From IMG/VR virus record IMGVR_UViG_2937142334_000003: 54,109 nt of DNA. One strand, given 5' to 3'. The notes under the pieces were generated by a model. The model did no database searches. It worked only from the letters and a program-made list of their open reading frames with translations, and had not been told where the DNA came from. Of the stretch, positions 20,418 to 43,701 are shown piece by piece. This stretch comes from a virus. Lineage: Duplodnaviria; Heunggongvirae; Uroviricota; Caudoviricetes. A program made the position numbers and the translations under genes. The first letter of the stretch is position 1; each line of letters starts with the position of its first letter.

Positions 20418-20620
20418 TGCTATATAAAATGTGAACAAATATAATCATCAATTTGTTTTGATTACACTTGAGAAAGAATTATATAGTTTTCCTTTCTTAA
20501 TTTTATTTACTACCGTCATCATTAGTGTTCTCATATCCTAACAAGAGGGTAATGACATTGACTAACTCTGATAGCTTCAGGGTGTAGCCCACCCCTTTAA
20601 TTTTCCTTATGCCAAAGCCA
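20418..20620 (-). ncRNA. Putative TnpB omegaRNA scaffold (right-end region)
   Basis: About 200 nt non-coding between tnpB stop and right end. Location follows from known TnpB biology; boundaries are approximate. Confidence 0.55.
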
Positions 20621-40907: not shown

Positions 40908-42935
40908 TTAGAGCATGAAGTAAGCATAATTATTAGATGCTTCTTCTTTTAATTCTTTTTCTAATTCATTTGCATAGTAATTACAGTAAGCAATCGAACT
41001 GTACCTATCCTTAGTCGTTGTTCCGACTTCGTAAATCTTGATATATCCAGTTCTAACGGTATATTCAAGGTTTACCAATTCGTTGACCAATGCAGTCGCT
41101 TGAACATATGGATATAAGACCTTAATTTGTTCTTCGGCCGGCAACTTTCGATATTCCTTATCTTCCTGTAATTCTTCGCGCTTTTGAATGTCATTCATAG
41201 GTAATCTGAGTTTTCCAGATTCAATGACATTCTTTAGGGAAACTGCAATTTCGTGGTTGAAAGCCGCATTTGCCTTAACCGTATATACACATTTAATTCC
41301 CTTAGTTTTTGTTCTATCGTTTGTTTCGTCATCATTGATACAAGCCCAGGCTGGATATTCTATATCACGATCTTTATCTGTAAGGACGGTTGTACAAGCA
41401 TCAAATACTCCTAACCCATTACCATTCGCATCCATAACTACATAATCAGCTTCAAAATCGTAATATAGTTGTTTTAAACGAATAGCTAAGTTCTCCGAAG
41501 AAATTGACTCTTGAATACTTTCCAAATAGACAACCTGGCGCTTATATTCATCACCCTCACGAATTAACCTCATCAACGTAAATGCTGATGTATCGTTCTT
41601 AACGAGCTTATTTCCACCCATTAAGGCAATATCAAGGGCTACTATTCTAATTTCATTTACTTTATCGACACGTTTGAAATTCGATAACGTTCTAGGCTTT
41701 GATCTATGCTGATTCTCAACAAATTCTTGATTTGTAGGTGGCCTAAATGTCTTTCCCACCGTTCTAGTCTTGTTCAACGGATCAAGTTTAAAATAGGCTT
41801 TATCACTTTCTCCAACGAATATGGCTTCATATTCCATATCAAAACTTGTTTGATCGAATGTGTCACTTGTTCTTTCAGCATCAACCGCACTTTGTGAAAG
41901 CAATCCACTTTTGATTGACAGCTGATATGGAAGTATGGCAACAAAATAACGCTTATCTGAACTCGTCATCTTGTTGAAATAATTCTTGAATTCGTCCCAT
42001 ATCCAGTGAGATTTATACCAAGCAGACGAAATATAAATCTGCTTGTTCTCTTCTCGCTTTAAATGACTATATTCTGGTTTTGATAAATAAGGTGGCTGAC
42101 GGTAAACATTAAGCATTGGCTTTAGAATCTTGTCCAATGTTTCTTTCTTAATCAGACGAAACTCATCACAGATTAAGATATTACAACGTAAACCACGAGC
42201 ACTTTCACCTGAAGTTGCAGCAAAGATTCTTGATCCATTTTTGAATTCTACCTTTGCCTCATTTATCGTTGTTTTAATATGATCCTTTTTATTACCTATT
42301 TCGTATCTAACTGCTGCTGATTGATCATAAAAATCTACTATCTTTTGTGAAATTATATTTGCTGCCTGTCCTTTTGTTCCGCTCGATAGAACAATCTTTG
42401 TTCCGGGGTACAAAATACACCGAACAATACAGTACAAAGCAATAATCCAACTTTTTCCTTTGATTTTGTTAACATAGATGCTTTTTATCATCTACTTCTT
42501 ATGGTTTCCCATAAGTTCGGCATAACTTTTCACCTACAACGTTACTTGTTTAGGGTGGCGGCCTCGTGGCGATGTTATATTCTCATATGAGGTTCTTTCG
42601 CTATGCTCTGCCCCTGACTAGGTTTTTGATCTAGCCTTCGGTTCTGATTACCATATCATTAGACTTAGGCTTCCAGCTTAATTCCGCCATTCCACACAAT
42701 ATTTCTATTGATCGGGGCAAGGTATTCTTGTTCGCCCCCGAGCAGCTATGTACATGAAGAAATCAACCTTATTCATCATGTAAAACAATAATTTCTGATA
42801 TAGTTTTAGATCTATACCTAAGTAATCTTTTACGAATATCTGCGGATTCCTTCGCCAATATCCGACCCATTTCATTAAGTTTCTTTCTCTCTTTTGAAAG
42901 TAGCTTACTCTTTCCTGTGTCTTCTTAGTCTTCAT
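40908..42935 (-). CDS. terL: Terminase large subunit, two exons (42935-42734 and 42460-40908; 584 aa spliced)
   Basis: Joined Walker A AARGQGKSW; Walker B ILICDE; nuclease motifs VALDIAL, VMDANG, KDRYSS. Confidence 0.9.
42461..42733 (-). ncRNA. Group I intron (273 nt, no ORF) in terL
   Basis: P2 CAAUA-GAAA-UAUUG; P3 UGGCGG/CCGCCA; P4-P6 with AA joiners; P7 GCAUA/UAUGC; P7.1-type extension; P9 CUUAUGG-GAAA-CCAUAAG; IGS CCUUGCCCC. Exact junctions are inferred. Confidence 0.85.
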
Positions 42936-43701
42936 AGAGACTTTCGACCTCCTTTTCAGAGGCCCTTCCAAAAGTTCTCTTCATAGGAATTACAAACCAC
43001 TTATTAATATATTTCTTTAATCCAGCAGTATCTTCGTACTTATCACTGTCTGGTACTGGTTCATTCAGCTCCCAGGCTTGAATTCTTTGCCCTAATGATT
43101 TTCCACTGTCATCATTCCCACTAAGTACAGCATCAAACCCTAAATCCTTTGAATCTTCTGAATATGCTTTACGTAAGGCAGTGATCGCCTTAGAGTCCCC
43201 ATCCATAAACGCCTTATCCAATGCGTCCTTCAACTTTACATTGGCAACATATCTCTGAATCTCAAATGCCGTTGTTGCCGGTTTAATTGCAATAAGACCT
43301 TGTAGCACATTCTCAAAATAAGCATATTCTTCTTCGTTATATCCCTTACCCCATCTACTTTCTAATTCGGGGGTAATGCTTACTGTTTCCTCGGCATGAT
43401 CTGTTGTGAATACAGAATCAGAGAAGGTCTTGAAATTCTTATACGGAGCTATTTTCTTTAAGTATTCTCCAAAATTAGGATTCTTACTTGTTCTCTTTAC
43501 ATCGATGTAAAGGTTCTTGACAAAGGGAACATTTGCGAACTGTGCCATTTCAATAACCGAATCCTCATTACTAAAATCAGCTACCGTATTGGCACAATCA
43601 CGACAAATAGAAAAACCATTGTCGAATAATAAGTTCTTGTGTCTTAAAAGTTGGTTAGACCTTTTTTCTTTACCACAGATGACACATATTTTCCCTGCCA
43701 T
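42925..43701 (-). CDS. Zn-finger protein upstream of terL, candidate terminase small subunit (YonG-like)
   Basis: 258 aa; CxxC...CxxC N-terminus; overlaps terL start. Confidence 0.55.
   Translation of the reverse strand: MAGKICVICGKEKRSNQLLRHKNLLFDNGFSICRDCANTVADFSNEDSVIEMAQFANVPFVKNLYIDVKRTSKNPNFGEYLKKIAPYKNFKTFSDSVFTTDHAEETVSITPELESRWGKGYNEEEYAYFENVLQGLIAIKPATTAFEIQRYVANVKLKDALDKAFMDGDSKAITALRKAYSEDSKDLGFDAVLSGNDDSGKSLGQRIQAWELNEPVPDSDKYEDTAGLKKYINKWFVIPMKRTFGRASEKEVESLYED

Follow-up and report, generated by a model that had tools for sequence, protein, structure and literature searches.

The window analysed here, by which we mean the whole 54,109-nucleotide (nt) stretch of the Caudoviricetes record IMGVR_UViG_2937142334_000003 (IMG/VR), carries terL, the terminase gene of a Limosilactobacillus phage-plasmid, with Walker A codons that are interrupted by a compact group I intron that ends in A and has a C-G pair at its 5' splice site. 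A G as the last intron base (omega-G) and a U.G wobble at the 5' splice site are regarded as the two sequence features that group I splicing requires almost universally. Comparison with relatives makes it likely that the intron belongs to an active lineage, in which splicing would be initiated by guanosine, the 3' site would be set by the P9.0 and P10 pairings and the identity of omega would be unconstrained; in this we include a form assisted by a protein. With somewhat less assurance, and only a little above even, we also think that there is a natural clade of phage and plasmid introns that ligates exons without a terminal G while keeping its guanosine pocket for the first step, and that its C-G sub-lineage does without the U.G pair as well. 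To our knowledge, such a clade would be the first case of its kind outside the mitochondria of hexacorals.

Position and fold of the terL intron

All features of the gene and of the intron lie on the minus strand. Exon 1 of terL (42935-42734) starts at an ATG (42935-42933) located 12 nt downstream of a GGAGG (42952-48), and consists of 67 codons plus C, the first base of a Gln codon; it encodes MKTKK...FFMYIAARG, and its N-terminus agrees with those of the full-length homologues P0006 and P0007. Exon 2 (42460-40908) provides the AA of the Gln codon, continues with GKSW, runs through 516 codons to the stop at 40908 and contains a Pfam match to Terminase_6N. The intron therefore interrupts the Gln codon of AARG-Q-GKS after its first base, between the exon ends ...GCU GCU CGG GGG C (42734) and AA GGA AAA AGU UGG (from 42460). 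Joining C42734 to A42460 is the sole junction that recreates the P-loop of the family, AARGQGKS. Indeed, among the about 120 TerL homologues that we retrieved, many of them uninterrupted and 564-590 amino acids (aa) long, the P-loop of essentially all the uninterrupted ones reads FMYIAARGQGKS[F/W/Y]. The protein read across this junction has 584 aa and aligns end to end and without gaps to P0006 (584 aa, 87% identity).

Intronless alleles fix the insertion to the base (a slash marks the insertion point): CGGGGGC/AAGGG in L015 and AGAGGT/CAGGGA in L061 and L062. Since these alleles and the protein consensus delimit the insertion, the boundaries of the intron are fixed, and the 273-nt intron without an open reading frame (ORF) that a sequence-only reading had placed at 42461-42733, together with its AARGQGKSW junction, is correct. 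The second register that this reading had entertained, GG/CAAA (giving AARGKGKS and a terminal U), has to be abandoned, as two same-site introns (L060 and L288) would then read a UAA stop and the family consensus at this position is Q. Two further candidates were rejected. In-frame junctions of the canonical U...G type (for instance, U42724/G42481 and U42719/G42473) would add 9-15 residues to the P-loop and ignore the guide, against the homologue consensus. An internal start for the exon-2 ORF (ATG 42491, inside P9.1) is not conserved, and is out of frame in the type found in plasmid p53608_1 of Limosilactobacillus reuteri.

The intron (42733-42461, GAACAA...AAAAUCA) folds into the P1-P10 architecture of a Twort-like, IA2 intron with P7.1, P7.1a, P7.2 and P9.1. 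The helices proposed earlier (P2, P3, P4-P6, P7, a P7.1-type extension, P8 and P9) can all be located by coordinates and are supported by covariation: P2 (CAAUA with UAUUG), P3, P4, P5/5a, P6/6a, P7 (GCAUA with UAUGC), P7.1 with 7.1a, P7.2, P8, P9 and P9.1. For instance, P3 (UGGCGG, 42689-84, with the 3' strand CCGCCA, 42556..42561) keeps 6/6 pairs in 15/15 sequences, single positions showing as many as four types of pair, and both P7.1 with 7.1a (42600-42570) and P7.2 (42569-42562) covary. The 5' strand of P7 (42601..42608, GAGCAUAG) faces the 3' strand UUAUGCC (42519..42525), forming the pair G42608-C42519, a bulged A42607 and the guanosine-binding pair G42606-C42520. This site is canonical, as had been read from the sequence, and invariant in 15/15 aligned introns; it aligns to the RF00028 consensus (..AGACUA and ..UAGUC), and we take the G42606-C42520 pair and A42607 to be the equivalents of G264-C311 and A263 in Tetrahymena.

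Covariation was scored over 15 same-site introns, with helices mapped from the window sequence, for 56 core pairs of P3, P4, P5/5a, P6/6a, P7, P7.1, P7.2, P8, P9 and P9.1. Standard pairs occupy 95.5% of the cells and two-sided changes occur in 31/56 pairs. When the 3' partner was slid by 1-3 columns as a control, 28-38% of the cells were paired and 6-11 pairs showed two-sided changes.

A scan of the window at the Rfam gathering score (50 bits) gave no intron match, and the E-value mode recovered a partial match to RF00028 (13.7 bits) covering P4-P5 only. However, the canonical relatives L003, L026, L033 and L001 are also missed, so the Rfam model is insensitive to this subfamily; the terL intron of Streptococcus thermophilus phage CHPC1042 (L002) just passes, with 51 bits across the full model. 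By BLAST, introns in phages of Streptococcus, Staphylococcus, Clostridioides and other hosts, where they interrupt late genes such as those for terminase and portal, share the region from P7' through P9 and P9.1 to the tail. When canonical phage introns were included in a covariance model of the 3' domain, this model gave the window intron 100 bits. The same model finds no second copy in the window, its two matches at E 0.35 being noise. Judged by its sequence, the window intron is a true group I intron of the phage type (IA2, Twort-like): it has the fold and the P7 guanosine site of the group, and has neither the U.G pair, nor omega-G, nor a score above the Rfam gathering level, while guanosine-initiated splicing is predicted.

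Splice sites and their pairings

At the 5' splice site, the P1 strand GGGGC (42734..42738) ends in C42734, the -1 base, which pairs with G42718 and puts a C-G pair in place of U.G. The internal guide CCUU-GCCCC (42714..42722) is fully complementary to GGGGC/AAGG, its GCCCC (42718-14) forming P1 and its CCUU (42722-19) forming P10 with the AAGG of exon 2 (42460-57). The first two intron bases are able to extend P1, an extension that P10 would later displace. The C-G pair, the terminal A and the guide pairing had all been noticed in the window sequence, and its relatives reinforce them. The C-G pair is also present in L059, L006, L060, L288 and L033. In this sub-lineage the Gln codon, CAA or CAG, begins with the -1 base, and the C-G pair can be understood because a U at this position gives a UAA or UAG stop in the spliced mRNA. 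The introns of a sister sub-lineage (L004, L011, L063, L014, L026 and L032) are inserted one base upstream, after GGU, and have an ordinary U.G pair; L004 is plasmid p53608_1 of L. reuteri ATCC 53608 and L026 is L. mucosae pLM1. Pattern scans of IMG/VR for the 5' junction were unspecific, and in one of them the intron model was found in 0/80 scanned loci.

The Walker A codons of terL are a hot spot for introns (the window, L004, L078, L068, L098 and L003), with at least three staggered insertion points: one follows the GGU of Arg-Gly, another the first base of the Gln codon, and a third the GGU of Gly in GKS. Introns at the first two points are closely related and their guides differ (ACUGGCCU versus CCUUGCCCC), which suggests, at the level of sequence, a retargeting by one base. 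L096 (964-1515; also L021-L023) has two tandem group I introns in these codons, separated by a 6-nt micro-exon, CAAGGT, encoding Gln-Gly (...CGTGGT/intron 1, 275 nt, ...AATAG/CAAGGT/intron 2, 271 nt, ...AACTG/AAGTCA); each of the two ends in G and is preceded by U at -1. Also, close relatives with 96-97% TerL identity (L060, at about 370-1508, L061, L062, L007-L009, L017 and L288) have a second, canonical intron some 27 codons downstream, at ...ASG/T(K/R).. (GGU/AAAAG...AAAACUG/ACAAGA), which is longer and probably contains an ORF; the window is without it.

At the 3' end, omega (42461) is A in place of G. In the omega column of the same-site introns, A is found in seven (the window copy, L059, L006, L004, L011, L063 and L014), U in two (L060 and L288, the latter a complete plasmid of L. 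reuteri YLR001) and G in three (L033, L026 and L032). Nine distinct same-site introns from L. reuteri megaplasmids and metagenomes are therefore non-G. The -1 and omega bases occur in the combinations C/G (L033), C/A (window), C/U (L288), U/G (L026) and U/A (L004). In the same-site introns, 5-6 bases separate omega from the conserved AACA motif, within the range of 3-6 bases of canonical relatives; L011 and L014 end in AACAAUACUA, and L250, from an unrelated site, ends in AACAAUACUG. As about 50 other distinct IMG/VR introns with the same P7/P7.2 core have tails ending in G, the non-G ends are peculiar to this terL site in Limosilactobacillus elements.

A sequencing or assembly error at both splice-site bases, which had been raised as a possibility, deserves practically no credence. 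Independent assemblies, complete L. reuteri plasmids among them, show the same bases, and 201 contigs are on record with an ORF that continues across the omega-A tail of L006-type introns, so the non-G ends are not artefacts of assembly. Also, a U at -1 would create a stop. The comparative data thus refute this explanation, and we found nothing in its favour.

Two pairings surround the non-G end. The putative 3' strand of P9.0, UC (42462..42463), lies directly before omega and would pair with G42518-A42517 of J7/9. By alignment inspection, the two strands change together in relatives (where AG in J7/9 goes with a tail CU, and GA with UC). Since the register moves by one base in the window copy, the P9.0 pairing is no more than plausible here. 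On the other side, P10 at the junction predicted by the protein has 3-4 base pairs (bp) in all non-G introns, with covarying variants (AAGG with CCUU, AAGG with UCUU, CAG with CUG, and CAG with UUG). As far as the sequence goes, P9.0 and P10 can pair so as to bracket omega exactly where the protein requires the junction.

These pairings bear directly on the idea that the intron simply splices at the next G (G42458). All non-G copies have such a G 3 nt beyond omega, its use yields an in-frame product, and activation of a cryptic downstream G after mutation of omega is known from Tetrahymena. Nevertheless, P10 at that junction would have just 0-2 bp, and the conservation of the Gln codon (CAG or (C)AA) exactly at the protein-predicted junction would be left unexplained. 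The P-loop of the resulting protein would be AARGRKSW in the window and, in the p53608_1 type, AARGGKS. It would be shorter or changed, without the invariant Gly of GK[ST] or with the conserved Arg displaced, and would need an alignment gap; no homologue has such a loop. The next-G product had been given earlier as AARGRRKS, which is not what the same 5' site yields; the conclusion that the P-loop is destroyed stands either way. We consider splicing at this G very improbable.

No change in the guanosine pocket correlated with the identity of omega was found when non-G and omega-G introns were compared. The one correlate, U42525 (U222 in the alignment), forms a G.U pair with G42601 at the distal end of P7 in 6/9 non-G introns and in 0/8 omega-G introns; L059, L060, L288 and 8/8 omega-G introns have a G-A mismatch at this position. 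The G.U pair is five pairs away from the pocket and is probably a marker of lineage, reflecting shared ancestry only.

Probable activity of the intron and the elements that carry it

From these sequences we infer that splicing occurs, that it uses guanosine and that it may not be efficient. In the first step, an exogenous guanosine would attack in the ordinary way and cleave after C42734 while it is paired with G42718; we propose this because the P7 pocket is canonical. The G-C pair of this pocket being unchanged, a use of ATP rather than GTP as the cofactor finds no support. In the second step, the 3' site would be placed by P9.0 (UC with GA) and the 4-bp P10 (AAGG with CCUU), with no need for a terminal G, the identity of omega having been released from constraint in this lineage to become A or U. 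The ligated mRNA would encode a normal TerL of 584 aa, through splicing that is possibly slow or helped by a protein.

It is also conceivable, although we judge it unlikely, that the intron is dead or nearly so. The loss of omega-G (and of U.G) would then block ligation and make terL effectively a pseudogene, the element surviving as a plasmid and the intron spreading by homing at the DNA level. The presence of a LAGLIDADG gene in this intron family fits such a spread. However, decay should strike the whole ribozyme, and the nine non-G copies vary only at omega: 96.8% of their core is paired, 12 pairs show compensatory changes, and no variation occurs in P7, P4 or J8/7. Because only omega drifts while the core is kept, neutral decay is disfavoured. 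Likewise, P10 and P9.0 still follow the junction, and one non-G type is present on 201 contigs. The terL ORFs are all intact and under strong purifying selection: exon 2 is intact in every non-G allele, and the ratio of nonsynonymous to synonymous substitution rates (dN/dS) between these alleles is 0.015-0.057 (0.02-0.06 when rounded), at dS values that run from 0.36 to more than 2 and hence into saturation. The omega-A intron L014 has an intact double-motif LAGLIDADG ORF in its P1 loop (126-965, 279 aa), homologous to that of the omega-G intron L032 (149-964, 271 aa), both lying between the 5' splice site and the guide. The sequence-only reading had left an active and a dead intron as alternatives; the invariance and covariation of the core, the P9.0 and P10 pairings, the purifying selection and the ORF of L014 together favour an active one, as far as comparison of sequences can tell.

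Several observations weigh against activity, and some of them also speak for a dead intron. Omega-G is near-essential in the introns that have been studied: in Tetrahymena and T4, ligation of the exons is severely reduced when omega is mutated to A, and the next G can come into use, while in model introns the first step is slower when the cleavage-site pair is C-G. With the guanosine-binding pair unchanged, there is no visible compensation for omega-A. A database search for junction-spanning proteins returned only intronless alleles, at up to 93% identity, and no spliced-junction sequence of this allele. The introns differ far less from one another than their exons do at synonymous sites, which makes recent homing at the DNA level possible and weakens the dN/dS argument. 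The carriers are large non-mobilizable plasmids of 108-138 kb that might persist without packaging. Finally, the intron tree lacks the resolution needed to count how often non-G ends arose or to date the loss of omega-G.

The active lineage that we favour comprises a sub-case in which a protein cofactor, a maturase or a host chaperone, positions the non-G 3' end, so that self-splicing in vitro would fail. LAGLIDADG proteins can serve as maturases, and L014 encodes one such protein. The hexacoral mitochondrial ND5-717 intron is classed as dependent on host factors (PMC3679873), and certain phage introns splice in vivo only (PMC11878797). However, the window intron encodes no ORF, and hence no endonuclease of its own, the window holds no homologue of the L014 protein that could act in trans (tblastn, best E 1.7), and no candidate factor was identified. 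We entertain this sub-case only tentatively.

Among the relatives of the window are large plasmids. The window shares 42% of sampled 31-mers with p53608_1 (138.5 kb), and related terL loci (L288, L289, L056 and L290) lie on non-mobilizable plasmids of 108-133 kb from L. reuteri, L. mucosae and Ligilactobacillus salivarius, whose records annotate terL only as fragments. The same genes precede terL in these plasmids, namely those for an HU-family protein and a 258-aa protein overlapping the start of terL, and neighbouring genes in related metagenome loci match the SPbeta-like families YonG and YonD. In the window, the 258-aa ORF (42925-43701, minus strand) ends 11 nt inside exon 1 of terL and has a weak match to a DUF4428 zinc ribbon (E 0.005) and a position like that of a small terminase subunit. 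Elsewhere, a full-length match to the Rfam family RF03014, Transposase-1 RNA (20516-20574, minus strand; 68.3 bits versus a gathering score of 42.8, E 2e-13), points to an RNA associated with an insertion sequence.

Natural variants and known systems

The natural variants at this single site (G, A or U at omega; U or C at -1), which appear to be under selection without the near-universal bases, provide a comparative series for the choice of the 3' splice site. Such a series allows one to ask whether non-G ends serve a purpose, such as avoiding hydrolysis at the 3' site or throttling the production of terminase. If our interpretation is true, these introns would be a compact (250-280 nt) and genetically tractable model for second-step chemistry that is independent of omega. 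There is also a consequence for annotation: the introns escape Rfam, and so public records of Limosilactobacillus megaplasmids show terL in pieces or cut short.

In the Lactobacillus delbrueckii phage LL-H, the gene for the large terminase reportedly has a group I intron too. That intron is said to belong to a different type of phage, to occupy a different insertion site and to have canonical splice sites. The closest likeness that we found is to the Twort-like, IA2 introns of phages, represented by L002, by L003 (in the Walker A codons of terL in Staphylococcus aureus phage IMEP5, with a GIY-YIG-type ORF) and by L001 (in the portal gene of Clostridioides difficile phage CD1801). The window intron has the same core, P7.1 and P7.2 between P7 and P3', a P9 capped by GAAA and a P9.1 with a AUAAAAAG loop; it also has the same GAUAACA tail followed by 3-6 nt, a guide of the form ..UGCC(C) and a location in a late gene, which in IMEP5 lies, as here, within the Walker A codons. 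The difference is at the splice sites: L001-L003 have U.G and a terminal G, while the window intron has C-G and a terminal A.

Engineered Tetrahymena introns with mutated guanosine sites reportedly use adenosine or 2-aminopurine and a terminal A, and are said to show that ligation with a non-G end is possible. There the binding-site G-C pair had been replaced by A-U, whereas the window intron keeps both the G-C pair and the bulged A. The only natural precedent for omega-A that we found is ND5-717, whose last base is A and whose exons are perfectly ligated in vivo (PMC6545197, PMC8146996). Like the window intron, ND5-717 is a natural group I intron ending in A. It differs in being mitochondrial, strictly vertical in its inheritance, very large (with genes for oxidative phosphorylation inside P8), of another subgroup and regarded as dependent on host factors. 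The window intron, by contrast, is a compact intron of 273 nt, of phage type and with a mobile relative, that additionally does without the U.G pair.

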